Positions 16,297 to 64,000 of a stretch of 64,000 nucleotides of DNA are shown one piece after another. Each line of letters opens with the position of its first letter. Positions within the stretch are counted from its first letter, which is position 1. This DNA is from Candidatus Cloacimonadales bacterium (GTDB lineage: Bacteria > Cloacimonadota > Cloacimonadia > Cloacimonadales > DAONDQ01): NCBI GenBank assembly GCA_963662275.1, contig OY759316.1, positions 320,001 through 384,000 of the forward strand. The letters run 5' to 3'. The notes below the pieces were generated by a model that was not told the origin of the DNA, ran no database searches, and worked only from the letters and a program-made list of their open reading frames with translations. The position numbers were made by a program, and so were the translations under genes.

Positions 16297-16327
16297 AATA
16301 CCCCTTCGTGTTAATACTCTGTAATTT

Positions 16328-31747: not shown

Positions 31748-32234
31748 ATCCATCTCCTCATTTCTTGCTCTCATGAGAATTATCGAAAACTCTCAAACAG
31801 AACAAAGTTTTATGAACTCTTCAAATTCTTCAAAACAATCAGAAAATGTATTTAATATTACTAAACATATAAATGTCAGCGTAAAGTTATCTGTCAAACT
31901 ATTTTTTACAATTAATTTTAGATTTCTCAACAAATCTTCCTCTTTCGTAGAGATGCCTGAATTGGGCTACCAATGGCTATCGTTTACGAAAGGAAATGGA
32001 GTAGTTAAATGCATCATAGTGATCCTTTCTTCATTCATACAGCGTTTCTAAAAACTACATTTGCTGCACTGGAGAATCGATATTAAAAGATACTCAACAA
32101 TCTCTTACACGGCACTGAACCATCTCTCATATCCTGAGAGAATTTTATGTGTATCCTGAGGGAGTCTTTCATGTAGCTTGTAGGAGAAGAACAGTGAATC
32201 AAACTCTCCCCTACAAGATGCAATTTTATGTCGC

Positions 32235-35376: not shown

Positions 35377-36376
35377 TACTGTTGTCCCTAATTCCAATCT
35401 GCTGTTATTTCAAACAGAAGATGGCGCCACCAGGATTGAAGTGAAGTTCGAAGATGAGAATGTTTGGCTAAACCAAAAAGGATTGGCGGAGTTGTTTCAA
35501 ACCACACCGCAAAACATAACTCTCCACATCAGAAACATTTATACTGATAGAGAATTGCCCATTGAGGCAACTTGTAAGGAATACTTACAAGTTCAAAATG
35601 AGGGTGGCAGAAATGTAAGTCGTTCCATGTCCTATTATAATCTGGAAATGATACTGGCGATTGGCTATAGGGTTCGTTCACTGCGTGGTACACAATTCAG
35701 AAGATGGGCAACGGAACATTTGCGTGAATTCCTCGTTAAGGGTTTTGTGATGGATGATAAGCGTCTCAAGGAAGAAAGGAATCTTGGATCTGATTATTTT
35801 GAAGAGTTATTGGAACGTATCCGGGATATCAGGGCATCCGAGAAGAGATTCTATCGTAAAATTACTGATATTTACAGTCTCTCTATTGACTATGATCCCA
35901 ATTCAGAGACGGCAAAAGAGTTTTTCCAGACAGTTCAGAATAAACTGCATTGGGCTATCACAGGTCATACTGCTGCGGAACTGATAGCGGAAAGGTCGAA
36001 TGCTGAACAGCCTAATATGGGACTCACTGCTTGGAAAGAGAGTAAAATCAGGAAGAACGACGTGACTGTGGCTAAAAACTACCTGACTGAAGAAGAATTG
36101 AAAAGCCTGAATCGAATTGTCACCATGTACCTTGATTATGCAGAAGACCAGGCAGAACGGCAATCCCCTATGTATATGAAGGATTGGAAAGAAAAACTGG
36201 ATGCCTTCCTCCGTTTCAATGGTCGTGAAGTGCTGGATAATGCGGGAAAAGTCTCTGCTGAGATAGCCCATTCTCTTGCTCTTCATGAACTTGATAAATA
36301 CAAAGCCAATCGGATTCAGGAAGATAATGCCAAACCTGATCCTCAATTTGACCAAGCTGTGAAGGATCTGAAGTGA
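35366..36376 (+). CDS. RhuM/virulence-family DNA-binding protein
   Basis: WLNQKGLAELF, YNLEMILAIGYRVRS.RGTQFRRWAT, VQNKLHWA, AKNYL. Confidence 0.9.
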   Translation: MNNNTVVPNSNLLLFQTEDGATRIEVKFEDENVWLNQKGLAELFQTTPQNITLHIRNIYTDRELPIEATCKEYLQVQNEGGRNVSRSMSYYNLEMILAIGYRVRSLRGTQFRRWATEHLREFLVKGFVMDDKRLKEERNLGSDYFEELLERIRDIRASEKRFYRKITDIYSLSIDYDPNSETAKEFFQTVQNKLHWAITGHTAAELIAERSNAEQPNMGLTAWKESKIRKNDVTVAKNYLTEEELKSLNRIVTMYLDYAEDQAERQSPMYMKDWKEKLDAFLRFNGREVLDNAGKVSAEIAHSLALHELDKYKANRIQEDNAKPDPQFDQAVKDLK

Positions 36377-37605
36377 GCAAGGTGAATATAAATAGACCCA
36401 GTTACAAGCATACTAAAATTGGATGGATACCAGAAGAGTGGTATGTTGAAGATTTGGGACAATTTATTAAATTGTCGAGTGGTGAAACGAGACCAGCATA
36501 CTACAATGAGTATGACTTAGGTGAAGATCATTTCCCAATATATGGGGGTAATGGGATTATTGGATATACGCATTTATATAATTCTGATTCTGAAACAATA
36601 ATCATTGGAAGAGTTGGTGAAAAGTGCGGATGCGTTTATAGAGTTTCAGGTAAAGTATTTATTACGGATAATGCCCTATATATTAAACAATGGCTAAAAG
36701 AAATCAATCCTGATTTTGTAGCATTGTTTTTATTAGATTTTAATGTCTCTAGGCTTAGAAGTAAAGGTGGTCAGCCACTAGTATCACAACAACCTATTTA
36801 CAAAATTAAACTCGTTATTCCTCCATTACCAGAACAACAGAACATTGCTGCCATTATTTCGGCTTGGGATAGGGCAATAGAACAAACCACAAGATTAATT
36901 GAAGCAAAGAAAAAACAGAAAAAAGGATTGATGCAGCAGTTACTGACTGGGAAGATGAGATTTCGGCAGTTTGGGAAGCCTGTTGGTCATATTGGTGAAG
37001 TGCCGGAAGGATGGAGAAGATACCATATCATTGATATAGCGAACGAAGTAATGACCAGAAATAAAACTTCTGAGATTCTTCCCTTTTTATCATGCTCCAA
37101 ATACAAAGGATTTGTCAATTCAGATGATTATTTTAGTAAACAGACATACAGTAAAAATTCTTCAAATTATAAGGTAATTAAGAAAGGACAGTTCGGTTTC
37201 CCCACAAATCACGTTGAAGAAGGTTCAATTGGTTATTTAGAACATCAGGAAAAAGGACTTCTAAGTCCTATTTATGTAGTTTTCAAAGTTGACCATGATA
37301 AGGTCGATGGGAAGTATCTCTATTGTCTGCTGAAATCTGATCTGTTTAAACATATCTTTGGTAAAATGACAAATGCCTCTGTTAATAGGAGAGGTAGCTT
37401 AAGATGGAACGGTTTCTCCAGAATAGCAGTTTCTTTACCCAACTTACAAGAACAACAGATGATCTCAAAACTAAATAACTTACTGGATTCAGAAATTGAA
37501 ATATTGATTCATAACCTGAATCAGATGAAGAATCAGAAACAATATCTGCTAGATAAGTTGCTAACAGGTGAAATTAGAGTAAACTTCTTTGAATATAGGT
37601 TGTAG
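36373..37605 (+). CDS. hsdS: Type I restriction specificity subunit S (two TRDs)
   Basis: IPEEW / VPEGW, PPLPEQQNIA...KKGLMQQLLTG and LPNLQEQ...LLTGEIRV conserved regions. Confidence 0.95.
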   Translation: MSKVNINRPSYKHTKIGWIPEEWYVEDLGQFIKLSSGETRPAYYNEYDLGEDHFPIYGGNGIIGYTHLYNSDSETIIIGRVGEKCGCVYRVSGKVFITDNALYIKQWLKEINPDFVALFLLDFNVSRLRSKGGQPLVSQQPIYKIKLVIPPLPEQQNIAAIISAWDRAIEQTTRLIEAKKKQKKGLMQQLLTGKMRFRQFGKPVGHIGEVPEGWRRYHIIDIANEVMTRNKTSEILPFLSCSKYKGFVNSDDYFSKQTYSKNSSNYKVIKKGQFGFPTNHVEEGSIGYLEHQEKGLLSPIYVVFKVDHDKVDGKYLYCLLKSDLFKHIFGKMTNASVNRRGSLRWNGFSRIAVSLPNLQEQQMISKLNNLLDSEIEILIHNLNQMKNQKQYLLDKLLTGEIRVNFFEYRL

Positions 37606-37793
37606 CTACTAAAGATGAAAATATGGATTTTAAGTCAACAGTAGCAGAATCAAACTCTCCCTTAATCCCTCCCTTTATCCAAAGGGAGGGAAACCAGACA
37701 GGATGCGCTTTACCCATTCCTCTCTTTGGATAAAGAGAGGTGGCACTTTAGTGTTGGAGAGTTTGAAAAGCTGAATATGAACATTATATCGGT

Positions 37794-37862
37794 TTTGAAG
37801 TCCATTTGCCCTTGTAGTCTAATATTCAATGATAGTCAGTTTGGGCAATTGAACTCCAAAAT
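37794..37862 (-). repeat. Module F hairpin element between hsdS and hsdR
   Basis: TTTTGAAGTCCATTTGCCC...GGGCAATTGAACTCCAAAA, similar to 17751-17826. Confidence 0.8.
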
Positions 37863-37887
37863 CCTTAACTTTGATTAAGGAGCATGA

Positions 37888-40800
37888 ATGCCAAGATTAG
37901 ATGAAGATTCTGTTTCCACCGTTCCAGCTTTGTTATTACTGCAAAATATTGGTTATGAGCTATTAACAGAAGATGAGGCATTCAAGCTACGAGGTAATCG
38001 GCTGAACAATGTCATCCTGGATGGCATCCTTATCCCATGGTTGAGGGAACATAATCATATTGAGTATAAAGGTCAGAAGATTCCTTTTACGGAAGGGAAT
38101 ATTGTGAATGCAGCCAATGCCCTGAAAGAACTTCCTTTTGATGGTTTGATCCGGACGAATGAACGCATCTATGACCTTCTCTGCCTTGGGAAAAGCATGC
38201 AGCAGACAGTTAATAATGATCTGAACAGTTTTGACATCAAATACATCGATTGGGAAAATCCTGCTAACAATGTATATCACGTTACTACTCAATATGAAGT
38301 TGAACGGACTGCTTCCAATGCTACGAGAATACCGGATATCGTTCTCTTTGTGAATGGCATTCCCTTTGTCATCATCGAATGTAAATCACCCCATATAAAA
38401 GATCCGATAAAAGAGGCAATCTCACAGCATATTCGCAATCAAAAAGAGGAAGAAATACCTAAGTTATTCCTCTATTCCCAGCTTCTATTGTCACTTTCCA
38501 AGAATGAAGCGAAGTATGCTACAACAGGCACTTCGATGAAGTATTGGGCAGTTTGGAAAGAAGAGACACCGGGTTTTGAGCAGGAAGTTGCGGCAAAAAC
38601 TAATGTATCTCTTTCCGGTGCGCAATTAGATGATTTCTTTAGAAAATGCGATGTCGTGTCAGACAACCATGAAGCTTATATCAATAGGAAAACTACAGGG
38701 CAGGACAGGATTCTTTATGCTTTATGCAGACCCGAAAGATTGATGGAACTCGTCTATCGTAACATCCTGTTTGATGCAGGAGAAAAGAAGATAGCCCGTT
38801 ACCAGCAGTACTTCTGTATACAGAAAATCATGTCCCGGATTCATACGAATAACGCAGAAGGTCATCGCCAGGGTGGGGTTGTCTGGCATACCCAGGGAAG
38901 CGGTAAATCCCTCACGATGGTGATGCTGGCAAAAGCTATCGCCTTAGATAAGGAAATCGCGGAAAGCAGGATCGTGCTGGTAACTGATCGTATAGATCTG
39001 GACGACCAGATTTGGGGAACTTTTAAGGATTGCGGGAAAGAAGTTGTGAAAGCAGAAAGCGGCACCCATCTCTCCAAATTATTAACAACAAAAAAAGATA
39101 GTATCATTACTACCGTAATCAATAAATTCGACGCTGCCTTAGGGAGACATGCCGTCAGGAATGAAGACCCGAATATCTTCGTACTGGTGGATGAAGGACA
39201 TAGAAGCCAATATGGGACGATCAATGTCAGTATGAGAAGGGTCTTGCCCAATGCCTGCTATATCGGTTTTACCGGAACACCGATCATGAAAAAGGAAATG
39301 AACACTATCCAGAAGTTTGGTGGATTGATCGATACTTATACCATAGACAAAGCGGTGCAGGATAAAGCTGTTGTACCCTTGCTGTATGAAGGCAGGCATG
39401 TTTCGCAAACCCTCAATGAAGAGCCAATCGATAGCTGGTTTGAACGTATTACAACCGGATTAAGTGATTCACAGAAGACAGATTTAAAACGTAAGTTCGC
39501 AACCACAGATCAACTCAACAAAGCAGAGCAGAAAGTCATGCGGATTGCCTGGGATATTAGCGAGCATTTCAAAAAGAATTGGCAGGGAACAGGCTTTAAA
39601 GCGCAATTAGTAGCACAGGATAAAGCGACAGCACTGCTTTATAAGAGATATCTCGATGAATTTGGGATGGTCAATTCTGAAGTACTGATTTCCGGTCCTG
39701 ATGATCGTGAAGGTGAAGATGATATCTATAAGGAAAACAAAGAAGAAGTGATTCGTTTCTGGAAAGTCATGATGCAGAAGTATGGCAATGAAAAAAACTA
39801 CAATAAAATACTCATCAGTGCTTTTAAATCTTCTGATAATCCTGAAATCATCATCGTTGTCGATAAGCTACTCACAGGCTTTGATGCCCCGAGGAATACC
39901 GTTCTGTACTTAACAAGGAAACTCAAGGATCACACACTATTACAGGCGATCGCCCGTGTGAACAGGTTATTCGATGGGAAGGATTTTGGATTCATACTCG
40001 ATTATCGGGGTGTGTTGGAAAACCTGAACCAAGCATTAGACCTGTATTCTGAACTATCAGATTTTGATCAGGCTGATTTGGAGAATACCTGGATTGATAT
40101 TGAAAAGGAAATAGCGACCATCGGACAAAAGCATTCTGAGTTGTTGTCGATATTCAATGAAGTTCAGAATAAGTCTGATGAAGAGCAATATGAGCTATTG
40201 CTTGCAGATAAGCAGGTTCGAGATAATTTCTATGAAAAACTCTCTGCTTTTGCGAAAGTATTTTCCATTGCCATTGCCAGCGTCCAGTTCATGGAACATA
40301 CAGATACGAAATTAATAGATCGGTACAAATCAGATTTACTCTTCTTTATGAAACTGCGACGCTCTGTGAGCCAGAGATATGCTGATACCGTTGATTTCGG
40401 TGAGTACGAAACGAAAATCCAGAAGCTGATCAATATGTATGTAGGAACAGGAGGGTTGGTTCAAATAACCGAACAAGTGAATATCTTTGATAAAGATGCC
40501 TTTAAATTGGAAGTGGACAGTCTTCATAATGTGGGAGCCAAAGCTGACGCCATTGCGCACAGGACGGCGAAGACGATATCTGAACATTATGAAGAAGATC
40601 CTGTTTATTATAGGAAATTCTCTGAAATGCTGAAACAGGCTATTGATGAGTATCATCATCAGCGCATCCAGGACTCTGAATATCTGCAGAGAGTTCAGGG
40701 AATCATGGATAAGATCATCACCAGGAGCGGGGATAATATTCCTATCCGTCTGCAGTCAGAGGATACTGCCAAAGCATATTATGGCGTGTTGAAGGATGTA

Positions 40801-41043
40801 TTGGATAAAAATGAAAGCTCAGAAGAAAAACTAGCGGAGTTGGCAATCACGATAGATGGGATAATCAAATCTGAAAAAATCGTGAATTGGTCGCACAACA
40901 ATGACGTTCAGAATAAAATGAAAAACCGCTTGGAAGACGAGATATTCAAGTTCAGGAAGCAAAATGATTTGGTAATTACTTTCGATGAGATAGATGAAAT
41001 TATGGAACAATGTATCAAAATAGCTAAAGTAAGGATTCCATAG
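37888..41043 (+). CDS. hsdR: Type I restriction endonuclease subunit R
   Basis: PDIVLFVNGIPFVIIECK nuclease, HTQGSGKS, DEGHRSQ, FTGTP, LLTGFDAP, QAIARVNR. Confidence 0.97.
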   Translation: MPRLDEDSVSTVPALLLLQNIGYELLTEDEAFKLRGNRLNNVILDGILIPWLREHNHIEYKGQKIPFTEGNIVNAANALKELPFDGLIRTNERIYDLLCLGKSMQQTVNNDLNSFDIKYIDWENPANNVYHVTTQYEVERTASNATRIPDIVLFVNGIPFVIIECKSPHIKDPIKEAISQHIRNQKEEEIPKLFLYSQLLLSLSKNEAKYATTGTSMKYWAVWKEETPGFEQEVAAKTNVSLSGAQLDDFFRKCDVVSDNHEAYINRKTTGQDRILYALCRPERLMELVYRNILFDAGEKKIARYQQYFCIQKIMSRIHTNNAEGHRQGGVVWHTQGSGKSLTMVMLAKAIALDKEIAESRIVLVTDRIDLDDQIWGTFKDCGKEVVKAESGTHLSKLLTTKKDSIITTVINKFDAALGRHAVRNEDPNIFVLVDEGHRSQYGTINVSMRRVLPNACYIGFTGTPIMKKEMNTIQKFGGLIDTYTIDKAVQDKAVVPLLYEGRHVSQTLNEEPIDSWFERITTGLSDSQKTDLKRKFATTDQLNKAEQKVMRIAWDISEHFKKNWQGTGFKAQLVAQDKATALLYKRYLDEFGMVNSEVLISGPDDREGEDDIYKENKEEVIRFWKVMMQKYGNEKNYNKILISAFKSSDNPEIIIVVDKLLTGFDAPRNTVLYLTRKLKDHTLLQAIARVNRLFDGKDFGFILDYRGVLENLNQALDLYSELSDFDQADLENTWIDIEKEIATIGQKHSELLSIFNEVQNKSDEEQYELLLADKQVRDNFYEKLSAFAKVFSIAIASVQFMEHTDTKLIDRYKSDLLFFMKLRRSVSQRYADTVDFGEYETKIQKLINMYVGTGGLVQITEQVNIFDKDAFKLEVDSLHNVGAKADAIAHRTAKTISEHYEEDPVYYRKFSEMLKQAIDEYHHQRIQDSEYLQRVQGIMDKIITRSGDNIPIRLQSEDTAKAYYGVLKDVLDKNESSEEKLAELAITIDGIIKSEKIVNWSHNNDVQNKMKNRLEDEIFKFRKQNDLVITFDEIDEIMEQCIKIAKVRIP

Positions 41044-41781
41044 ATGTCGGAAGATAGCAAAGTAATTGATGATTATCATTTGAATCTATTTTATAACGGA
41101 CAAAAGTATGATATATTCTTTTTTCTCGAGGACAACCGAAAGCGAATAACGTATAAAGTTACTCCTTCTAAACAAATTCATATTACCTGTCCAATTGGTA
41201 TTAAACAAGAAAGATTTGGTTCACTGATTGAAAAAAAGAAAAAGTGGATTGTTAAACAATTAGATTTTTTCGAAGAAATGATCATGCAACCAGTGACCAG
41301 GCAATATATTAGTGGTGAAACCTATTTATATTTAGGAAGGCAATATCGTTTAAAGGTTATCGAGGGTGAGAAATCAAGCATCAAATTGATTGGTCAATTC
41401 CTTGTGATTGAGATGAGGAATGTGCATGATCTAGAATTAGCTGAAAAGTTGATGAATAGATGGTATAAAGACCATGCAATAGAATACATTCAACGAAGAA
41501 TTGAGATACATAGTAAGTATTTTGAAGAACGTTATCCATGTAAAATTGAATATAGGTACAGGTATTTACGCAAATCATGGGGTAAATGCTCGCAAAAGGG
41601 TGTTATCGTATTTAATGTGGATCTGATTAAAGCACCGGTACATTGCATCGATTATATCATTGTACATGAATTATGCCATCTCATTTGTTGGAATCATGAT
41701 CGTAAGTTTTGGGGCTTGGTATCCAGGATATTGCCCGATTGGGAAGCACGGAAGAAGAGATTGGAGAAGGTGCAGATATAG
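41044..41781 (+). CDS. DUF45/YgjP (SprT-like, M48) metallohydrolase
   Basis: YISGETYLYLGRQYRL, WGKCS, IDYIIVHELCH...NH. Confidence 0.9.
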   Translation: MSEDSKVIDDYHLNLFYNGQKYDIFFFLEDNRKRITYKVTPSKQIHITCPIGIKQERFGSLIEKKKKWIVKQLDFFEEMIMQPVTRQYISGETYLYLGRQYRLKVIEGEKSSIKLIGQFLVIEMRNVHDLELAEKLMNRWYKDHAIEYIQRRIEIHSKYFEERYPCKIEYRYRYLRKSWGKCSQKGVIVFNVDLIKAPVHCIDYIIVHELCHLICWNHDRKFWGLVSRILPDWEARKKRLEKVQI

Positions 41782-46974: not shown

Positions 46975-47161
46975 AGTAAACTAAAAACTTGGAGTTCAAA
47001 TCGCCTTCGCTTGCTTATGTTTGTATCGAATGTAAAGGCGATTCGGACTTTCAAGTTTTTATATCTACACTGTGAATGTCGGGCGGTAGCTCCGCTTTTA
47101 CGCGGTTATAGCATAGGACTCCGATGGCTTCGAAATACATACATACGAAAGTATGTGCTAC

Positions 47162-47191
47162 AAAAAAAAGGGCGAGTTTGCACTCGCCCTT
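47162..47191 (-). terminator. Intrinsic terminator of the barrel-barrel-nucleotidase operon
   Basis: Minus strand AAGGGCGAGT-GCAA-ACTCGCCCTT followed by a T-tract. Confidence 0.8.
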
Positions 47192-47212
47192 CATATATAT
47201 AGCTTGGAATTC

Positions 47213-48889
47213 TTACTTAGGTAAGGACTCCAAGGCTTTTTTCAAATCAGGAGTAATTGAAGAACGATCATCTCTTTTCCATCTATCATCAATCTTAGTA
47301 CGGATTGGTGAATTCTTTTTAATGTAATTCACAATACCATCACGCAAGTTTGTCTGATAATTCGTGATTTGATCTTCAGGTACAGAAGTTAAAAAAGTAA
47401 GTCCAGCATTTCCCTGCATCAGGAAATCGGTTGTTGCAACTTTATACATTTTGTTTGGATCCCAAGGCTTACCATTGATGAGCAGTTTTGTGACACGATC
47501 CATATCCGGACGCTGTTTATTATAAACAACATTAGCACCGGAAACAAGCAGACCATGACGTCCTCCAGCAACACGTAATTCGATGATCTTTTTCAGGAAA
47601 GCACCGTTACACATGAAGGAAACGATTTGATTATCGAAAGGCATCACATCGAAAACCTGGCGATAAGTGACTGGTCCAACAGGAATCTGACCACGTACAC
47701 CACCAAGATTGAGGAATGCAAAATCAGCACCAACTTCTTCTCTGGTTGCATCTGTACACATATTACCGATTAGACTCTGAGCATCCACGTTTTCCTTGGA
47801 AAGGAAAACAGAGGCTTCTCCAACAACTTCATCCATTCCCTTTTCTGCTATTGCCTGCTCAGCTTTGATGTTTTTGGAAATTTCCTCATCCGGAAGAAAT
47901 TCATCATCAAACAAAGTTACAAGCACTCCTTCACGAACAGCAGGTAATTCATAACCTTCAATCTTTTTTGTCTTTGGATCGATATTCAGTGTGATGATAC
48001 CGAGGTTGCTGCCATAGGCATAACCTGTCATAACAAGTGTATGAGTGATGGGGTCTGACCAAGGTTTGGCAAAACCCTTATGCATATGTCCACCGAAGAA
48101 GATATCGATACCGGGTACTTCATGAGCTATTTCCTGTGCATCATAACCCCAGTAGCGTTCTAAGTTCTTACTCGAACCATCAGCATTATAACGGCTTTGA
48201 TAGGCAGGTTCGGGATCATAAGGAAGCCCCATATGACCAACGACAATGATCAAATCAGCACCTTCAGCTTTTACGATGGGAATATACTTATTCAAAGCTT
48301 CTTTTTCATCAGTAAATTCCAAACCTCTGATATTATCAGGAAAACTCATTTTCGCAATATCAGTTGTACACAAACCAATAACACCTATCTTTAAACCTAT
48401 TTTTTGAATAATGACATAAGGGCGTATGTATGGTGGTATTTCTTGTGTAGCTGGATTAATCAGGTTGGAACAAAGAATAGGAAATTTAGCCGTCGAGATA
48501 GCATCAATTAGTGCTTGCTCACCAGTATCATAATCATGGTTACCAAGTGCTAAAGCATCATATCCGATAGCATTGTAATAATTGATAATCGCTTTACCCT
48601 TGGTCACTGTACCGATTGGATGTCCCTGGAAGAAGTCCCCTGCATCAAGCAGCAAAGTTGCTTCTTTTGGACCTGACAAGGCACGATAATCTTTGATTAC
48701 CGTTGCGGCAGTACCGCCGCCACCCAACATAGGCGGGAAATCGGGATTGATGAATGTTGCAGGTGTACGATCAATACCACCATGTACATCATTCGTAAAA
48801 AGTATGTCCAGCTTCAGACTTTCAGCGCATAGCAATGATGATGATAGGCTGATCAGCAGAACAAGTGGCAGGAAATTTATCCATTTCAT
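47213..48889 (-). CDS. Secreted bifunctional metallophosphatase / 5'-nucleotidase (UshA/CpdB family)
   Basis: Signal peptide; FTNDVHG, LDAGDFFQG, LGNHD, GGHMH; C-terminal NLGGVRG, PFDN, VATTDF. Confidence 0.93.
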   Translation of the reverse strand: MKWINFLPLVLLISLSSSLLCAESLKLDILFTNDVHGGIDRTPATFINPDFPPMLGGGGTAATVIKDYRALSGPKEATLLLDAGDFFQGHPIGTVTKGKAIINYYNAIGYDALALGNHDYDTGEQALIDAISTAKFPILCSNLINPATQEIPPYIRPYVIIQKIGLKIGVIGLCTTDIAKMSFPDNIRGLEFTDEKEALNKYIPIVKAEGADLIIVVGHMGLPYDPEPAYQSRYNADGSSKNLERYWGYDAQEIAHEVPGIDIFFGGHMHKGFAKPWSDPITHTLVMTGYAYGSNLGIITLNIDPKTKKIEGYELPAVREGVLVTLFDDEFLPDEEISKNIKAEQAIAEKGMDEVVGEASVFLSKENVDAQSLIGNMCTDATREEVGADFAFLNLGGVRGQIPVGPVTYRQVFDVMPFDNQIVSFMCNGAFLKKIIELRVAGGRHGLLVSGANVVYNKQRPDMDRVTKLLINGKPWDPNKMYKVATTDFLMQGNAGLTFLTSVPEDQITNYQTNLRDGIVNYIKKNSPIRTKIDDRWKRDDRSSITPDLKKALESLPK

Positions 48890-48935
48890 AATGTATCCTT
48901 ATTATTCAGTGCTTTTCTCATGGAAAGCTCTAACA

Positions 48936-50390
48936 TTACCAAGTGTATGTAATAGAAGCTAGAACCTTAACGAAAGTTTCACGTATAGCATCCGGATTTT
49001 CCCAACCACGATCAGCCAAGGTAATTGGATGCGATGAATTCATCCAAACCAGATAAGCTGCTGATCCCGGATTATATAGTTTATCATTGTAATAAGTATC
49101 CTGGAAAAGATCTAATGCTTCATAAGTGCGGAATGAATATGAGACGGCAAAGTCAAAATATACTTTGTTACTGATCGAATATCCTGTACCTGCACTGAAA
49201 GAAGGTGTGATGATCTTATTCGCATACACCGTGTAGTCATCTGAGATAGTCTGGAAAGTAGTTTCCGTACTAAAACCAGCACGGAGTGGGAATCTACCGG
49301 TAATACCATGTTCGATACCTACGGAATAATTGAGCACATTATGATCAAAATGTTCATCAGTTTCATACCAGTTCACTATTTCTACTTCTGCATTGAAATT
49401 CGTTCTCAGGATATTTCGAGGGGTATAACTAAGTCCCATTCTAAAGGAAGAAGGCATAGTATAGCCTTGTAAAGCTAAACTATCTTCATAAGTTTTGGCT
49501 ACTTGCACTGGAATATCGTTTTCACCATAAATATCCTTGAAACTATCAAATTTGCTCGTTACAGAAAGTTCGGATTTACTTGTGTATCTGAAACCTAAGG
49601 TGAAACGTTCTGTCCATTGACCCAACCAGCCAAACTGTAACTGACTACCATTAAAGTTCCTAGAGATACTCTTTGTATAATCCGGTAACAGATTATGACC
49701 TGGATTAGCGATGTTGGAGGTACTCGCAATAACTGTTCGGATAGCCCAATCCGACCAGCGGATCTTTGTTTCCTGTTCATTATTACCAGTCAAAGAAGCA
49801 TACTTGAAGCCAAATGACATCTTACTCATATCAGATTCAATCATATAAGCAAAATTGATACCTGTGGAATTCATCTTTCCCTTGTTCGTGATGAAGTTTT
49901 TAGCAATGATTTCCGGGTAAGTGTCATTATCGCTGTTACGATTATTACGAACTTCTTCGCGGTATTTAGAGCTAAAATCGACAATCGGCATGACTTCCAA
50001 ACCAAGTGCACAAGTACCACTTCCAAAATGCGTCGTCGTCATAACGGTACCTGCATAATCGTCAAATCCATGTGTGTTGGAAGCATATACAGCATCAGCA
50101 ATATAGTTATCAAATGAATTATAGAAAGGTAAACTGCGGGTTTCTTCCAACTGTGTTGAACCTAGAGATAATTCAGCCGCAAATTTGGCATTCAGCATCG
50201 CAGCAACAGCAGGATTGAGATTTGCATTCATGGGTCTTGCTCCAATCGTCATACCCGTATTTCCCATTGCCATGGAACGCGCATCAAAGGATAAGATTCG
50301 GTTACCGAAGGCACTGTCGGTGAGTGAATAAGAAAAAAGAGAAAAGGCTGCTAAGAGCAGGCTCAGACAGAATAAATATCTTTTATTCAT
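48936..50390 (-). CDS. Outer-membrane beta-barrel, FadL/TodX/PorV-like
   Basis: Signal peptide; DARSMAMG...NPA N-terminal plug motif; amphipathic strands; C-terminal ITYTW. ATG 50390 follows GGAGG. Confidence 0.75.
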   Translation of the reverse strand: MNKRYLFCLSLLLAAFSLFSYSLTDSAFGNRILSFDARSMAMGNTGMTIGARPMNANLNPAVAAMLNAKFAAELSLGSTQLEETRSLPFYNSFDNYIADAVYASNTHGFDDYAGTVMTTTHFGSGTCALGLEVMPIVDFSSKYREEVRNNRNSDNDTYPEIIAKNFITNKGKMNSTGINFAYMIESDMSKMSFGFKYASLTGNNEQETKIRWSDWAIRTVIASTSNIANPGHNLLPDYTKSISRNFNGSQLQFGWLGQWTERFTLGFRYTSKSELSVTSKFDSFKDIYGENDIPVQVAKTYEDSLALQGYTMPSSFRMGLSYTPRNILRTNFNAEVEIVNWYETDEHFDHNVLNYSVGIEHGITGRFPLRAGFSTETTFQTISDDYTVYANKIITPSFSAGTGYSISNKVYFDFAVSYSFRTYEALDLFQDTYYNDKLYNPGSAAYLVWMNSSHPITLADRGWENPDAIRETFVKVLASITYTW

Positions 50391-50407
50391 GGGTCCTCCC
50401 AAATGTA

Positions 50408-53113
50408 TTAGAATTTCCAGTCAATTTGAAGTCTAATTGAGTTTTCAACACGTTCCACACGTTGGAAGTAATTATTCTGGTTGTCAGGGTAGGCTATATT
50501 ATACTGTCTGACAAACTCTTCCAGTGTTTGGTATTCTTTGTATTTATATTTAAAGCTGATAAACACGTTATGAGCTAATTGATCTTGGATCGTAAACCAG
50601 TATTTCATCCCTTTTTGACCCATGAAATCGATTTCGATATCTTCCCAGTCCCAGTGTGATATGCCATGACCGTTCCAATATAAAACGGAACCGTCAACCG
50701 ATAAATTATCGTTGAAATTGTGGGAGTAATTCACAGCCACAAAATCACCTGTCATTTGGGTTGAACCATTTGCCTGATTGTTGGCAACAGGTACAGCGGG
50801 GTATGTGATCGATAGATAGGGTGGTCCCCATACGGTGTTATAACGATATTCAAATGACATATAGTCACGTGAAGTCAAGAAAGTTGCTACGCTGGCAGTA
50901 TATTCGTCTGTTTTGGAAACAGCACGGTCTGCACTTTCATCATAGCGATTGATTTGTTTCTTATATTTTGCTCGGAAACTGATCTGATAGACTGGGCGAT
51001 AATCAAGGTCACCTTGGAAGCGAACGCTTTTGCGATGATCTGAAAGACGTTCCCAAATATCTACATAGGTCTTTCCTAGAGTGAAATAACTGTTGAAACG
51101 ATAACGCGTTTCAAAGTACAAACCTCTTTCCGCCTGGGCTTGAGCATTGTTATAAACCATATCACCAATGAGAGGATTCGTCATGGTATAATTGTATTTT
51201 TCCACAACAGTATCCGTTAATTTTTGATGTTCCGAAAAAGCTCTGCTGTAGGGATTATCGAAATTCAAATCATAATTACGATACAAGCTTAAAAGATACA
51301 AATTATCGAATTGAGTGTATGAACTCAGAACAACAGCTTTTGGATCATCTCCCAGTATGGTATCTTTTCCATTCACTGATAATTCAGCATATTCACCCTG
51401 GAAAGAAGTGTTCTTGATAACGCTCATCCAGTCAAAACCTACTACACGACGATAATCCCGATCGTAATTGCCATTCTTAGTACTATATAAATTACTGAGT
51501 TCCGAATCAGGAGTCTTCCAGTATTTATAGTTATAAGAATCACGAATCAGGAGTTGCTTCAAATCAGCATCTTTCGGGATTACAAAATCAGTGTTATCAT
51601 ATACGGAAGTATAAGTGGTAAAACCGAAATTCGTTCCAACAAAAGGACTGAGAGTAAGATGTCCACCAGTGACAGTTTCGGTCAGGAAATTTTCACGTGG
51701 TGCAAGATTGATATATGGAACAGCCCAAGGATATACATTCGGATAGGTAGTATGATCAATGACAGAAAGCTCATGATCAAAATAATTCTCAGCTTCGGTT
51801 AATTCATCATTATCAAAACCGTGTGTTGAAGTGACATAGCTTAAAACCTGGTAAGTTCCATCATCATTTTTCAAAGGATGCGAGTGATGAGTTCCATCAG
51901 CCCACACTGAATCAGCCATATAAACGATAGCATCTTTTTTATCACGTGAGTAGAAGAAAGATGCATCCATCCAAGTTTTCCGTAATTCCAAGGCGAGTCC
52001 CTTCATCGAATATTCCTGGGTACGTGATAAATCAGGGGTGATACCAAGAATACGTTTCGTAAATCCATAACCGGTATTACGTGATGTATAATAGTCTGTA
52101 TTATCTAAAATCAGACCTTCTCCATAAGTAACACGGTAATTACCGAAATATTGTTTGATCCCAGTGGCTCCAAAAAAATCAACTGTGTTCTCATAACCAG
52201 CATAGAATTTTCCATTATCCAGTAATTCCTGTCCACCTGTTTTGAAGATGTCTTCATTCCCTGATGGTGAGTCATAGAGGATACCTGCTTTGATATTGTT
52301 GCCATAACGAATTCTGACCTTATTCAAAACAGATGGAGCATAACTATCCATGTGTAAAAATCCCCAATAGCTGTTATTCTTATGGTTAATAGCAGCGACA
52401 ACAGCATCCGGTAGGGGAGTGCTAGAAGCGACCATACCATATGTTGGACGTAAAATCGCCTGTTTGTACATAGCCATAGGGTCATCTTCCAATGGAGTGC
52501 TCTGGTATTTGAGTTGATAATCCACGAAAATTCTGTCTTTGATGGGTGGTTCTTTGTAATACACATAGTTTTTCATATTCGAATACCCATAAAATGAAAG
52601 ACCCGGAGAATTCTTTAAATCTCTTTGATCAATCAGAGTATCACCCTGTGCGCGACGCTTCATAACGGCATACGCATCAACAGGAGAGACATTGGGCAAA
52701 CTCAGGTAGTCGTTAAAGAACATACCATTTGCATTTTGAGGGGTCATTAAAAAATCTTCCCAAACATCAGACATACCTTCTTGCGATCCTTCGTTTGCAT
52801 CCATCCGCTGTAAGAGATAACCGATTTGTGCTCTGCGTATTACAGAATCATCAGTTTCCACATAATGTGTTAGGATGATCAAAGGGCGAAGTTTTTCTAA
52901 TGTAGGTTGATCAACAGAAGATACCTTACGTAAATCGTAGATGTCTTCGAAATAGGCAACGTATTGCCTGTAATCATAAATATCCTTGGCTTGTTGTTCT
53001 GTTATTGGTAGAGTTCTTAACTCTGCAAAAGTCGCTGAATTCAAATCAACTTTTACTGCAAATAACGGAATCGCTAACATGCACAAGAAAAGGAATAGGA
53101 ATTTTTTCATCAT
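50408..53113 (-). CDS. ComEA-like helix-hairpin-helix domain protein fused to an outer-membrane beta-barrel
   Basis: Signal peptide; VDLNSAT..EL..LP...QAKDI.DYR...F..I.DL..V (ComEA HhH); a second degenerate HhH; GNYRVTYGEGL; C-terminal beta signal LQIDWKF. Confidence 0.8.
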   Translation of the reverse strand: MMKKFLFLFLCMLAIPLFAVKVDLNSATFAELRTLPITEQQAKDIYDYRQYVAYFEDIYDLRKVSSVDQPTLEKLRPLIILTHYVETDDSVIRRAQIGYLLQRMDANEGSQEGMSDVWEDFLMTPQNANGMFFNDYLSLPNVSPVDAYAVMKRRAQGDTLIDQRDLKNSPGLSFYGYSNMKNYVYYKEPPIKDRIFVDYQLKYQSTPLEDDPMAMYKQAILRPTYGMVASSTPLPDAVVAAINHKNNSYWGFLHMDSYAPSVLNKVRIRYGNNIKAGILYDSPSGNEDIFKTGGQELLDNGKFYAGYENTVDFFGATGIKQYFGNYRVTYGEGLILDNTDYYTSRNTGYGFTKRILGITPDLSRTQEYSMKGLALELRKTWMDASFFYSRDKKDAIVYMADSVWADGTHHSHPLKNDDGTYQVLSYVTSTHGFDNDELTEAENYFDHELSVIDHTTYPNVYPWAVPYINLAPRENFLTETVTGGHLTLSPFVGTNFGFTTYTSVYDNTDFVIPKDADLKQLLIRDSYNYKYWKTPDSELSNLYSTKNGNYDRDYRRVVGFDWMSVIKNTSFQGEYAELSVNGKDTILGDDPKAVVLSSYTQFDNLYLLSLYRNYDLNFDNPYSRAFSEHQKLTDTVVEKYNYTMTNPLIGDMVYNNAQAQAERGLYFETRYRFNSYFTLGKTYVDIWERLSDHRKSVRFQGDLDYRPVYQISFRAKYKKQINRYDESADRAVSKTDEYTASVATFLTSRDYMSFEYRYNTVWGPPYLSITYPAVPVANNQANGSTQMTGDFVAVNYSHNFNDNLSVDGSVLYWNGHGISHWDWEDIEIDFMGQKGMKYWFTIQDQLAHNVFISFKYKYKEYQTLEEFVRQYNIAYPDNQNNYFQRVERVENSIRLQIDWKF

Positions 53114-53277
53114 CGTGATTCCTTTTTTTAGTAGTTCTCTCAAGTTGCACAAACAAACTTGCCCTTCTTTTATTGTAAAGCTTTTTATCTCTAAACTTCA
53201 TCAAATTATTTACTTGCCAAGAAACGGATGAATTTTGCATACATATTAGTACTTCAAATAAGCATAGAGAGGAAATT

Positions 53278-54945: not shown

Positions 54946-55488
54946 ATGTTCATGAAAAAGGTATTAACTTTTTGCGCTCTTGTAATTACCATCTCTTTAT
55001 GTGCAACCGAACCAATAAAAGGTTCAGTTGGTCTTGGATTAGGTATTCCTTATGGATTTATGGGTATGAATATGGATTATTATCTGAATCAATATGCTGC
55101 TCTCACTGCAGGTGTTGGATCGACTAATATTGCCGGAATTGGATTCAGTGTCGGTACTAAATATTATTTTGTAGATGATACAAAGAGTTTTCGTCCAAGA
55201 CTGACAGCCATGGCTGGAATTAATGGTGCATTGAAAAAAGAGATATTTGATAATGAAGTCACTGGTTCAAGCGAAGATTTAATCAAAGAAACTTTTCCAG
55301 GAGTATCGTTAGGTTTGGGAGCTTTAATAACTTGGGGTGAAAATAAACAGCAAGGGCTTGATTTTGATGTTTTTTATATCTGTTCAAGTGGTATCTATGA
55401 TAGAATATCAAATCTTAGAGACCATGGTTATGATATAAAAAAACCTGGGAGAATTAGCATTTCCTTTGGATATAGATATCAGTTTTAA
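54946..55488 (+). CDS. Small outer-membrane beta-barrel protein
   Basis: Signal peptide, Gly/aromatic alternating strands, C-terminal ISFGYRYQF. Confidence 0.65.
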   Translation: MFMKKVLTFCALVITISLCATEPIKGSVGLGLGIPYGFMGMNMDYYLNQYAALTAGVGSTNIAGIGFSVGTKYYFVDDTKSFRPRLTAMAGINGALKKEIFDNEVTGSSEDLIKETFPGVSLGLGALITWGENKQQGLDFDVFYICSSGIYDRISNLRDHGYDIKKPGRISISFGYRYQF

Positions 55489-61153: not shown

Positions 61154-64000
61154 ATGAAAAAAAGTGTATTATTCGTATTCGTTATGTTGCTTCTTACTTG
61201 TTTAACCTGGGCAAAACCAATTTCTTTAAACCAGGCAAAACAGGTTGCAAACAACATCATGATGGAACGGGGGAGTTTCATCAAATCAACAATTACAGAT
61301 AACATTGTAGAAAGAGACAACACGGGACAACCTCTGATTTATATTTTCAACTTCAAGCCAGCAAGCTTTGTCATGGTTTCTGCTGAAGATAATGTTGTTC
61401 CATTACTAGGTTTTTGTTTGGACCAAACCTATAGTAATAGCAATCATCCAATTCAATTTGATGATATGATGGCTAGTTTTCGTGGTCAGATCCAATACGC
61501 TCGTTTACACAGACTTAACTCAACTACCGAGATTAATAATGATTGGGCGCGGTTGAGTGTATCCACGAATAATTTTATACCGAACCATAATCGTGACCGT
61601 GATGTAACTCCTATCCTTCAATCGACTTGGGGACAGGAAAGTTATTATAATGCCTATACACCTTCTGGGACTCCTGTTGGTTGTGTGGCTGTTGCTATGG
61701 GTCAGATTATGAAACGCTGGAGTTTCCCAACAACCGGTACTGGTTCTAACAGCTATTCATGTCCACCTTATGGAACCCTATCAGCAGATTTTAGTACCTC
61801 AACTTATGCCTGGTCAACCATGCCCAATGCGCTTAGTTCTGCTAATCCAGACGTTGCAGGTCTTCTTTCTGATCTGGGAATTTCTGTAAATATGGATTAT
61901 GCTCCCGGTGCATCAGGTGCAACAGATGCAGCTGCTGCAAGTGCACTAGTTGATCATTTCAGTTATAAGAGTACTTTATCTGTAGTTAATAAGAATGGTT
62001 ATCCGGGTGGTGATGTAGCTTGGACAAATCTGATGCGTGCCGAAATTGATGCAGGTCGCCCCATGTATTATGCAGGTTATGGTATCAACAATGGTGAGTA
62101 TGAAGGTCATGCTTTCAATCTAGATGGCTACACAATCTCTGGTAATCTCTTTCATTTCAACTGGGGCTGGTATGGATATTATAACGGATATTTCACGTTG
62201 ACAAGTTTAAACCCCGGTGGTTCAGTATTTAATGATGACTGTTCTGCTATTATTGGGATTCAGCCAACTGCTGCTGCCGGCGGAACCCTATCCGAAGCGT
62301 TTAACGGTGTCACAGCACCCGCCATGCCAACCGGATGGATTGTTACTCCTGCATCAACATGGGTAACTGCTACGGCTGGGACTCTTGAAGGAACGAACTC
62401 GGCTTATTATACAGCGGTAGGAACTGCTTTTTCAGGAAAAAGACTAGTCACTCCCAAACTAACAGTAGTTGCCGGCAACACGATTAGTTTTTATGCAAAA
62501 CGAGGCTCTACAACAGGGGTTACTATCAAAGTAAAATGGTCTTCAGACGCAATCAGCTATAGTGATTTTTCCACACCTATATCACAAAGCTTGACAGGTA
62601 CTGCGACCACATATTCATTCCCGATTGGTACTTATAAGACAGGTGATTACTATGTTGCATTTGAAACCTACACCACTAATTCTACAGGAACCAGGCAAAT
62701 CTACCTGGATAGTGTTGTAGGTCCGGCACTTTGGATCAATTCATCTCCTGTTATCACCCTGAATACATCCACCTGGAATGCAGGGAATGTTGCCTCGGGT
62801 TCAGTTGGGTCATCAGGAGATATTTTTACTATTACCAATACAGGTTTAGCTAGTTTGACAATTACTTCTGCTGTTATCTCAGGTCCCAGCGCAGTAAAGT
62901 TCAACACTAACTTTAATACAGGCACCGTCCTCCAGTATAATCAATCGTATTCTTTCGGTTTTAATTATGAACCAACGATATATACGTCTGATACAGACAC
63001 TCTAACAATTGTGACAAATGGGGGAACGAAGAAAATCGTTTTAACCGGTACTTGCCAGTACAACATCATTAGTGATGGGTTCGAGTCTTATACAGACTTT
63101 GCCTTATCATTTCCACCTTGGACTTGTACTGATGTGGATTTGAAGACTACATATGGTATGAATGGTGTCAGTTGGGCAAATGCATATGCTGCCCAAGCAT
63201 TCATTATTTTTAATCCTTCGACAACCGTTCCACCTTTAGCAGGAGAAGTTAATGCCCCGCATGGTGGTGCAAAAATGGCTTGTAGCTTTGCCTCAGTACC
63301 TGGAAGTCCGGCGACTGCAAATAATGATTACTTGATTACTCAATTATTATCATTATCTGGATCAGGCTCAGCAACAGTGAATTTTTGGGCAAAATCTTAT
63401 GATCCTGACTATCTGGAAACATTCAAAGTTAAGTATTCGACAAGCTCTAATGCAGTTGGCAGTTTTTCAAATACACTGGCAACTGTGACATCTGTACCTA
63501 ATGCCTGGACTTTCTATACCTATACATTAACAGCAGTACAAGCAGCAGCATGTAAATATATTGCCATTAACAATATCGGATTGGACAAATACATTCTGAT
63601 GATTGATGACTTCTACATTCATGATGCTACTACACCTCCTGCACCACCGAGTTTCGGCAATGTAGAAGGATTTGTTTATGCCTACGGGACAACAACTCCG
63701 ATTCCAAATGCCTTGGTCACAGTTGGTGTGAAGACTGCTACGACCAATGCAAGCGGTTATTACAAAGTCAATAATTTGATTGTGGGTACCTATACAATGA
63801 CCTGCTCTGCACCAGGGACATTCTATTTTAGTACAACTCAAGCTTCTGTTGCGATCACGAGTGGTGCAACAACAGAACAAGCATTTGGACTGAAATGGTC
63901 AACCATCGCAGCAAATCCTACTACACTGACACAGACATTGAATCCGTTTGCGACTGCTGATCAGACTCTGACAATTACAAATCCTACAGGTACGGATAGT
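61154..64000 (+). CDS. Secreted C10 (streptopain/SpeB-like) cysteine protease with propeptide and adhesin/Ig domains; truncated by window edge, absent from ORF track
   Basis: Manual translation, spot-checked in frame to the end: signal MKKSVLFVFVMLLLTCLTWA; prodomain FVMVSAED..VPLLGF; catalytic WGQ...VGCVAVAMGQIM; GHAFNLDGY; FHFNWGW; later NNDYLITQ and GNVEGFV..PIPNALVTV. Confidence 0.9.
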   Translation, partial: MKKSVLFVFVMLLLTCLTWAKPISLNQAKQVANNIMMERGSFIKSTITDNIVERDNTGQPLIYIFNFKPASFVMVSAEDNVVPLLGFCLDQTYSNSNHPIQFDDMMASFRGQIQYARLHRLNSTTEINNDWARLSVSTNNFIPNHNRDRDVTPILQSTWGQESYYNAYTPSGTPVGCVAVAMGQIMKRWSFPTTGTGSNSYSCPPYGTLSADFSTSTYAWSTMPNALSSANPDVAGLLSDLGISVNMDYAPGASGATDAAAASALVDHFSYKSTLSVVNKNGYPGGDVAWTNLMRAEIDAGRPMYYAGYGINNGEYEGHAFNLDGYTISGNLFHFNWGWYGYYNGYFTLTSLNPGGSVFNDDCSAIIGIQPTAAAGGTLSEAFNGVTAPAMPTGWIVTPASTWVTATAGTLEGTNSAYYTAVGTAFSGKRLVTPKLTVVAGNTISFYAKRGSTTGVTIKVKWSSDAISYSDFSTPISQSLTGTATTYSFPIGTYKTGDYYVAFETYTTNSTGTRQIYLDSVVGPALWINSSPVITLNTSTWNAGNVASGSVGSSGDIFTITNTGLASLTITSAVISGPSAVKFNTNFNTGTVLQYNQSYSFGFNYEPTIYTSDTDTLTIVTNGGTKKIVLTGTCQYNIISDGFESYTDFALSFPPWTCTDVDLKTTYGMNGVSWANAYAAQAFIIFNPSTTVPPLAGEVNAPHGGAKMACSFASVPGSPATANNDYLITQLLSLSGSGSATVNFWAKSYDPDYLETFKVKYSTSSNAVGSFSNTLATVTSVPNAWTFYTYTLTAVQAAACKYIAINNIGLDKYILMIDDFYIHDATTPPAPPSFGNVEGFVYAYGTTTPIPNALVTVGVKTATTNASGYYKVNNLIVGTYTMTCSAPGTFYFSTTQASVAITSGATTEQAFGLKWSTIAANPTTLTQTLNPFATADQTLTITNPTGTDS

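Follow-up and report, generated by a model that had tools for sequence, protein, structure and literature searches.

The 64,000-nucleotide window analysed here (positions 320001-384000 of contig OY759316.1 in the closed 4.38-Mb genome of a Candidatus Cloacimonadales bacterium, GenBank assembly GCA_963662275.1) carries a trio of genes, named P1, P2 and P3 in this study, which represents a real, deeply conserved and uncharacterised outer-membrane module that strong contextual evidence links to nucleic-acid salvage. P1 encodes a predicted outer-membrane barrel preceded by helix-hairpin-helix (HhH) modules of the ComEA type, P2 a barrel of the FadL superfamily, and P3 a secreted enzyme of the 5'-nucleotidase family. 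We put at about one half (0.5) the probability that the trio is the conserved core of an outer-membrane module acquiring the products of extracellular nucleic acid. What is established is the gene unit itself, with its domains, folds, conservation and genomic company. The initial annotation of this DNA had proposed an operon for nucleic-acid capture and salvage; its observation is confirmed by the present analysis, and its interpretation is supported in part.

Gene organization of the trio

According to the list of open reading frames (ORFs), P1, P2 and P3 are three adjacent genes, all on the minus strand. P1 (50408..53113, with the stop codon at 50408-50410) encodes 901 residues, in which a signal peptide and two HhH_3 modules of the ComEA type precede a barrel of ~24 strands; its ORF spans 50408-53152, and the ATG at 53113 is the start common to homologues, which begin with the same MKK. 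P2 (48936..50390) encodes 484 residues in an ORF spanning 48936-50402 with an ATG at 50390, and P3 (47213..48889) encodes 558 residues. The intergenic gaps derived from these coordinates are 17 nucleotides (nt) between P1 and P2 (50391-50407) and 46 nt between P2 and P3 (48890-48935), identical to those for which the initial annotation described three tightly spaced, co-oriented genes. A single strong terminator-like hairpin on the minus strand (47192-47167) lies directly 3' of P3 and closes the operon, in agreement with the one terminator placed earlier at 47162-47191; with its T run, this intrinsic-terminator-like element occupies 47157..47192 on the minus strand and has 11 pairs, six of them GC, a loop of 4 and the tail TTTTTGTAGC. 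Signal peptides, previously assigned to all three proteins, were likewise read by eye from the translations at the N-termini of P1, P2 and P3. The C-termini of P1 (...DWKF) and P2 (...TYTW) have the aromatic ends usual in outer-membrane barrels.

Conservation and loss of the trio

A protein search returned 316 relatives of P1, and every relative of the window bears the label Cloacimonadota, one short contig excepted. Two sets of loci were compared, one of 80 Cloacimonadota loci with P1 46-77% identical, and one of 80 metagenome loci, retrieved by searching with aligned distant relatives, in which P1 is ~30% identical to that of the window. Counting the loci with enough downstream DNA (at least 600 nt for P2 after P1), P2 comes after P1 in 78/78 Cloacimonadota loci, with P3 next in 69/69; the corresponding figures for the distant loci are 70/72 for P2 and 61/61 for a gene in the P3 position. 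Because it recurs in 69/69 and 61/61 loci, the adjacency of P1, P2 and P3 is far beyond chance, and the earlier proposal that the three genes form one unit withstands this linkage check. The flanks of the trio differ among loci and are shared with the closest relative (L002) alone. L117 and L160 are the sole distant loci without P2 after P1; in L117 the P1 match ends at residue 643, and L160 (WOR8_10004885) has LTD/OB and PorQ-like genes before P1 and recX after it.

A profile search against 1.84 billion representatives yielded 115 P1 clusters at E<1e-30, the named ones labelled Gemmatimonadota, WOR-3 and 'Dependentiae', to which a protein atlas adds Fidelibacterota. Among the sampled Cloacimonadota genomes, P1 is present in 186/201, including 140/151 of high quality, and in 56/61 genera. 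It is found in none of the six closed 1.5-1.6 Mb genomes of one family (f13), and P2 is found in none of five closed genomes of this family (G002, G005, G008, G017 and G022). Ten P1-less genomes were searched for the nucleotidase. In family f13, the gene is absent from G022, has a 30-bit partial match in G002 and G017, and is broken by stops in G005 (one TAA) and G008 (two pieces with a TAG); the interrupted gene could reflect decay after loss of the barrels, or could be an unrelated paralogue. Among the five further P1-less genomes, three contain no nucleotidase match, one has fragments at a contig end, and one has a weak paralogue. Retention and loss clearly affect the trio as one unit.

Genomic company of the trio in other phyla

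The distant loci have the trio embedded in a longer operon. Counts of neighbouring genes cover 75 of the 80 distant loci, with gene calls that are wrong in some high-GC loci (e.g. L097 and L098). The extended operon contains an ~860-residue protein with LTD, PKD and a type IX secretion system (T9SS) C-terminal sorting domain, plus an ~660-residue LTD and OB-fold protein whose gene, in 42/45 loci, is the second one upstream of P1. The latter resembles the N-terminal part of ExeM/NucH nucleases and shows a weak match to DUF5689, which is sub-threshold both here (E 8.1e-5) and in the homologue encoded in the genome of the window (E 9.7e-4). Immediately upstream of P1, an ~300-residue barrel of the PorV/PorQ family is encoded in 52/59 distant loci, and a lipobox-bearing EEP nuclease gene follows P3 in 18/39. 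In L139 the next gene encodes an Endonuclease I according to Pfam, and in L145 an ORF of the same length (944 residues) occupies the same place.

The third gene itself varies in these lineages. In 15 of 44 full-length distant genes in the P3 position, an EEP nuclease domain stands instead of the nucleotide-binding 5_nucleotid_C domain behind the same Metallophos domain; these Metallophos-Exo_endo_phos fusions occur in a marine lineage (L133-L161; e.g. L134:10764-12680 and L133:5379-7394), and none was found among 72 Cloacimonadota copies. Through this exchange of 5_nucleotid_C for EEP, the predicted fusion ties the third gene directly to nucleic-acid cleavage. The companion genes in other phyla (LTD/OB, PorV/PorQ-like and EEP), together with the EEP fusion, support the reading of nucleic-acid salvage. 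The salvage theme of the initial annotation is therefore backed by the LTD/OB, EEP and Endonuclease I companions and the Metallophos-EEP fusion, whereas its external capture by HhH domains is not borne out by the architecture of P1 described below.

Domain architecture and fold of P1

The signal peptide of P1 (53057..53113, minus strand, residues 1-19, MMKKFLFLFLCMLAIPLFA, read from the translation) is followed on the same strand by HhH_3 module 1 (52877..53059, residues 19-79), HhH_3 module 2 (52538..52762, residues 118-192) and the beta-barrel (50411..52531, residues ~195-901). Module 1 matches Pfam HHH_3 (PF12836) with 45.4 bits against a cut-off of 27 (E 9.1e-12). In the AlphaFold2 (AF2) model of P1 (predicted local distance difference test (pLDDT) 62, predicted template-modelling (TM) score 0.58), it superposes on Geobacillus ComEA (8dss_B) with Z 12.9 and a root-mean-square deviation (rmsd) of 1.1 A over 64 residues at 36% identity. 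Module 2 is highly conserved (NVSPVDA ... GLSxYGY) and retains part of the hairpin motif (NVSPVDA / GLSFYGY). Its HHH_3 assignment rests on the family profile: the profile of 26 members reaches ComEA (8dfk_A) at 1.1e-4 and the HhH pair of EEPD1 at 5e-9, and module 2 of 19 of the 26 members reaches HHH_3 individually. An hhalign comparison of module 1 with module 2 is weak (E 5e-4, probability 31%). Based on the Pfam and fold match of module 1 and the family-profile matches of module 2, P1 is assigned two ComEA-type modules. The NCBIfam comEA models (TIGR01259/TIGR00426) score below their cut-offs on P1 (31.3 vs 152.35 and 22.9 vs 53.1), and the ~900-residue relatives of P1 are annotated as 'competence protein ComEA' or 'helix-hairpin-helix domain-containing protein'.

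In the DSSP string of the model, 24 strands can be counted for the barrel, the turns being short where the N- and C-termini lie and the loops long at the opposite face, and both HhH modules lie N-terminal of strand 1. Because the modules come ahead of strand 1, with the short turns on the N/C-terminal side as in the usual barrel topology, they probably face the periplasm and are not surface-exposed, and the earlier claim that the HhH domains bind extracellular DNA at the outer membrane is not upheld for modules that precede strand 1 of a ~24-strand barrel. The solved folds nearest to the P1 barrel are the FimD and PapC ushers (Z 15.0 and 14.2) and MtrB (Z 13.1), with rmsd values of 5.5-6.2 A; TonB-dependent transporters are lower than the ushers (Z 10-12), and the Foldseek TM score of the P1 barrel against solved barrels is ~0.3. 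Searched with sequence profiles against the PDB, P1 matches HhH proteins alone and no solved barrel with detectable sequence kinship. The assignments of P1 to the usher, TonB-dependent transporter, MtrB or VDAC families were rejected, the likeness being a generic barrel resemblance of size and shape. In particular, for a chaperone-usher system there is no Pfam match of P1 to an usher family, and chaperone and pilin genes are absent among the neighbours scanned; for a 22-strand TonB-dependent transporter of the DdbC/SusC type, neither Plug nor TonB_dep_Rec is matched in Pfam or NCBIfam at E<=0.1, and 24 strands were counted. The AF2-model fold alignments to TonB-dependent transporters begin at P1 residues ~95-136, judged from the alignment ranges alone, which hints that part of the N-terminal region may sit in the barrel lumen in a plug-like manner.

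P2 as a predicted FadL-type barrel and P3 as a secreted enzyme of the 5'-nucleotidase family

The predicted fold of P2 is clearly that of a FadL-type 14-strand barrel, in which an N-terminal hatch (ARSMAMG...NPA) is preceded by a conserved stretch of the N-terminus. The NLNPA sequence is present in the hatch, and N59 is invariant among homologues; we take an N-terminal hatch with NPA to be a FadL feature, and the PDB titles of the matches name NPA, N33A and P34A mutants. The Pfam Toluene_X/FadL model (PF03349) gives 17.4 bits, under its cut-off of 29.7, and the P2 profile finds TbuX (1.3e-7) and CymD (4.8e-6) in the PDB. With the AF2 model of P2 (pLDDT 77), Foldseek returned the FadL, TodX and BamG chains at E ~1e-14. 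The query-based TM scores (TMq) are 0.55-0.60 for the FadL-like subunits of the machinery for beta-barrel assembly (BAM) of Porphyromonas gingivalis, Bacteroides thetaiotaomicron and Flavobacterium johnsoniae (P. gingivalis 9hjm_F 0.60; F. johnsoniae 9n2d_B 0.55; a further Bacteroidota chain, 9hiv_F, 0.57), 0.53-0.56 for FadL, and 0.37 for the T9SS protein PorV (8gl6_F). Of the curated PorV models (NF033710 / NF033709), PorV_fam gives 33.8 bits against a cut-off of 90, and no match was obtained with the PorV equivalog. P2 was accordingly rejected as the organism's T9SS PorV on its PorV_fam score and on a TMq well under those for BamG and FadL. Of the earlier description as a FadL/PorV-like barrel, the FadL-type fold stands and the PorV part falls, and, with regard to the refuting condition set there (a P2 that clusters with true T9SS PorV shuttles unrelated to the nucleotidase), score and fold show that it is no true PorV.

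P3 matches the Pfam models Metallophos (118.2 bits) and 5_nucleotid_C (53.9 bits), both over their cut-offs, and its best solved relative is PDB 3ivd_A, 'Nucleotidase' (E 7.6e-58). Residues D34, H36, D82, D85, N117, H118, H219, H268 and H270 of the metal site, which we take to be the dimetal motif set of the 5'-nucleotidase family, are invariant among 21 sequences. The UshA equivalog score is 182.7 bits, far under the cut-off of 600, and the UshA, NadN, CpdB and SoxB models are all matched, each under its cut-off. P3 homologues have signal peptides of the signal peptidase I (SPI) type, as has P3; the Cys in the signal peptide of the window's own copy is not conserved among them, and the assignment of P3 as a lipoprotein was rejected on this ground. 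Pfam searches detected no T9SS C-terminal domain in P3 or its homologues. Given the SPI-type signal peptide without a conserved Cys, P3 is predicted to be a soluble secreted enzyme, by default periplasmic. In a complex prediction of P3 (residues 24-558) with the P1 N-terminal region (residues 20-192), the median score was 0.53, and an unrelated-chain control scored higher, at 0.59.

Related genes elsewhere in the genome

Homologues of the two genes found directly upstream of the trio in other phyla occur as a pair elsewhere in the genome of the window, at C1:3753997-3756434 (L175:8995-11417, minus strand), where a 520-residue LTD/OB-type protein adjoins a 282-residue barrel of the PorV/PorQ family. 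The 520-residue protein has a weak DUF5689 match, similarity to the N-terminal part of ExeM/NucH and a FlgD_ig/T9SS-type C-terminus; the 282-residue barrel scores 270 bits to the operon-linked PorQ-like barrel and 83.4 bits to the PorV/PorQ family, against a cut-off of 90. Both are on the same strand as genes for thymidine kinase, DivIVA, a PNP_UDP_1 nucleoside phosphorylase, a DksA-type zinc-finger protein and LspA. A homologue of the operon-linked EEP nuclease is absent from this genome, the sole Exo_endo_phos gene of which is a 274-residue ORF located elsewhere. The genome further contains six Endonuclease_1 ORFs, several of them with LTD, one Endonuclease_NS and 12 LTD matches. Giant secreted proteins with LTD and Endonuclease I cluster at C1:83394-107000 (ORFs of 487, 1437, 2407 and 1163 residues).

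Proposed function and alternatives

In the proposed mechanism, secreted or surface nucleases would cut nucleic acid outside the cell, and P1, with its ~24 strands, would be the outer-membrane channel through which the products pass. The HhH modules, placed where the channel opens into the periplasm or in part within its lumen, would hold or gate the incoming oligo- or polynucleotide, and P2 would attach to P1 as its partner, just as homologues of FadL associate with BamA and SprA in related phyla. P3 in the periplasm would strip phosphate, after which nucleosides and phosphate would cross the inner membrane. The external nucleases and an LTD/OB-type binder with a PorQ-like barrel would be contributed from other loci in the genome of the window, and from the same operon in other phyla. 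Here we infer the topology, the contact between P1 and P2, the substrate and the direction of transport; the trio probably serves in the uptake and dephosphorylation of breakdown products of environmental DNA or RNA. A bolder version of this model is doubtful, if attractive: P1 and P2 might constitute a new class of translocon for polymeric or oligomeric nucleic acid, working without pili, secretins or TonB, with an HhH catch at the periplasmic exit and direct hand-over to a phosphoesterase (the nucleotidase or the Metallophos-EEP protein), and common to Cloacimonadota, Fidelibacterota and allied phyla; DNA would then have a third way through the outer membrane.

Several points weigh against nucleic-acid acquisition. 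The initial annotation relied on the binding of double-stranded DNA by ComEA HhH domains, an assumption that is not safe for module 1, since its hairpin residues are replaced and its net charge is negative or neutral: its hairpins read LP-ITEQQA / SSVDQ where ComEA of the same genome has LPGIGEKKA / KGIGPK, with Gly-x-Gly and Lys (presumably the ComEA motif, Gly-x-Gly hairpins with flanking Lys, as in this genome's ComEA) gone, and across 15 sequences its net charge ranges from -5 to 0, with 11 values negative and four neutral. Module 2 of the window's own P1 gives no Pfam HHH_3 match by itself. The confidence of the P1 model is middling (pLDDT 62), and both strand count and topology come from reading its DSSP string. 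The best fold matches of P1 and P2 are to machines that handle proteins (the ushers, and the BamG subunit of BAM), which equally fits a role in protein export. A 5'-nucleotidase acts on mononucleotides, for which a pore of 24 strands should be unnecessary. For the trio, no energy source (a TonB box, for instance) was identified, and the neighbour scan of the window revealed no nuclease, inner-membrane nucleoside transporter or regulator linked to it. The loci within each set, and the genomes, are also related to one another, so that the linkage counts are not independent events.

The main alternative, which we regard as unlikely, is that P1 and P2 are a pair for protein export or display, comparable to SprA-PorV, BamA-BamG or the ushers, which transports the nucleotidase (or, in other phyla, the fusion with a nuclease domain) to the cell surface or keeps it in place there, with the HhH modules as periplasmic docks for the cargo. 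The nearest solved structures to P2 are indeed the FadL-like subunits of the Bacteroidota BAM, those of P1 are FimD/PapC ushers, the HhH hairpins are degenerate, and genes for T9SS cargo and PorV/PorQ-like barrels lie beside the trio in relatives; BamG and PorV are described, in the part of PMC12578637 consulted, as FadL homologues bound to other barrels. These fold matches are generic, however, with the Foldseek TM score of P1 at ~0.3, and the P3 homologues carry plain SPI signals, with neither a conserved lipobox Cys nor a T9SS C-terminal domain. Moreover, a folded two-domain protein of ~60 kDa such as P3 is large for a 24-strand lumen. Unlikely, too, is the scavenging of phosphate or organophosphates without polymers, in which P1 and P2 would admit small phosphoesters (such as mononucleotides, NAD or UDP-sugars), the HhH modules would act as plug or gate, and P3 would free the phosphate. 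Enzymes of the UshA family are broad phosphoesterases, a breadth mirrored in the sub-cut-off matches of P3 to four family models (UshA, NadN, CpdB and SoxB), the HhH hairpins are acidic as well as degenerate, and the start of the TonB-dependent transporter alignments at P1 ~95-136 may hint at a plug. Against this, the companions in other phyla are DNA-specific (the ExeM-NucH-like LTD/OB protein, EEP, Endonuclease I and the fusion at P3), and two ComEA-type modules kept across phyla are hard to square with a mere plug.

Natural transformation, with P1 as a DNA entry port whose tethered ComEA-like ratchet feeds ComEC, appears very unlikely. The ComEA-type modules in P1 and a ComEC gene in the genome would suit such a role, and a non-secretin outer-membrane transporter is reported to function in the transformation of Riemerella and in the catabolism of DNA by Bacteroides (PMC12478041, from a portion of that article). 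In every case, however, a degradative nucleotidase belongs to the trio, joined in relatives by nucleases; comEC and dprA were never seen beside the trio at the loci examined, where some of the flanking genes were scanned; and a canonical tandem-HhH ComEA and two secretins are already encoded in the genome. The latter finding also changes an argument of the initial annotation, which had concluded on scavenging from the lack of pilus, secretin and comEC genes nearby: this absence says little, as ComEC, ComEA and the two secretins are located elsewhere. Acquisition of nucleic-acid products remains our preferred reading of the trio, at the even odds given above.

Comparison with known systems

Among described systems, ddbABCDEF of B. 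thetaiotaomicron comes closest; it is used for DNA utilisation and comprises, as far as described in the available part of Sharan et al. 2025 (PMC12478041), three nucleases, the TonB-dependent DdbC and the DUF5689 protein DdbD modelled as a DNA-binding lid; according to the same part, ddb relatives serve transformation in Riemerella anatipestifer. On this description, the logic of ddb matches that proposed for the trio with its companions, namely nucleases outside the cell, a surface DNA binder, an outer-membrane transporter and an SPI-type periplasmic hydrolase, and the LTD/OB companion of the trio (in other phyla, and as a homologue in the genome of the window) has sub-threshold matches to DUF5689, the family of DdbD. 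The transporters differ, DdbC being TonB-dependent with a DUF5689 lid, whereas the trio has an HhH-bearing ~24-strand barrel and a FadL-like barrel; in addition, the periplasmic enzyme of the trio is a 5'-nucleotidase and not a nuclease, and the window contains no nuclease or binder gene. The initial annotation knew of no described system of this composition. This holds in so far as the trio was not found described and its type of transporter is undescribed, but a functionally analogous system does exist in ddbABCDEF, as far as the consulted part of PMC12478041 presents it.

The individual proteins also have known counterparts. P1 resembles ComEA in the HHH_3 fold, in having two modules like the ComEA of its own genome, and in their probable periplasmic location, and differs from it in that the modules are fused to an outer-membrane barrel, module 1 is without the Gly-x-Gly/Lys hairpins, and the comEA models are not reached. 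Like BamG and PorV, P2 is a 14-strand FadL-type barrel encoded beside a larger barrel, and its conserved stretch before the hatch can be set beside the conserved N-terminal extension described for BamG (PMC12578637, in the part available). The genomic partner of P2 is P1, and neither BamA nor SprA, and the PorV models are not reached. BamG forms a tight complex with BamA and is essential; P2 appears to be no universal housekeeping subunit, since the search of five closed f13 genomes found it in none of them. P3 is the same two-domain enzyme as UshA, with an intact metal site and a signal peptide, and differs in being no UshA orthologue, in its fixed place in an operon with two barrels, and in the swap of its C-terminal domain for EEP in some lineages. 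Periplasmic 5'-nucleotidases are used in the utilisation of extracellular DNA (eDNA), for example in Shewanella and Vibrio (PMC8289736 and PMC4714964, each in part), and are treated as an accepted step of it in the section of PMC8289736 consulted, which mentions no outer-membrane partner. The extended loci of other phyla contain the same building blocks as ExeM/NucH (LTD, OB and EEP), spread over separate genes; none of these parts is present in the window, and the genome pairs LTD with Endonuclease I at other loci. In the literature no description of the trio was found, although supplementary tables of PMC8289736 and PMC11129491 could list its genes under generic names.

Other features of the window

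The neighbours of the trio lie on the opposite strand and are unrelated to it, with two ABC exporter genes downstream and a gene for an AMP-binding enzyme upstream. A 180-residue ORF at 54946-55488 (+) has a signal peptide, Gly-rich repeats and a ...GYRYQF end, giving it the look of a small outer-membrane barrel, and has no Pfam match. A type I restriction-modification locus at 33844-41781 (+) encodes HsdM (33844-35376) and HsdR (37888-41043), followed by a YgjP-like metallopeptidase. Large secreted proteins are encoded at 14818-16392, 17887-20046 and 25994-31774 on the minus strand and at 61154-64000 on the plus strand; two of them end in T9SS sorting domains (10 LVIVD repeats are present in one of these two), and the others include a 1926-residue GEVED-domain protein and a Peptidase_C10 that carries an Spi inhibitor domain and is cut short by the end of the window.

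Significance

To our knowledge, nucleic acid has been described to cross the outer membrane in two ways: through the pili and secretins of competence, and through TonB-dependent transporters of the DdbCD type. If the proposed function is true, the trio would add a third architecture, and the widespread annotation of ~900-residue P1 relatives as ComEA or HhH proteins would be corrected. The trio is compact, consisting of two barrels, one soluble domain pair and one enzyme, and is testable. In sediments, digesters and guts, much phosphorus, nitrogen and carbon is stored as extracellular DNA and RNA. The module, which is nearly universal in Cloacimonadota and common to several other phyla, would, if it works as proposed, help to explain nucleic-acid feeding by these abundant and mostly uncultured anaerobic bacteria.

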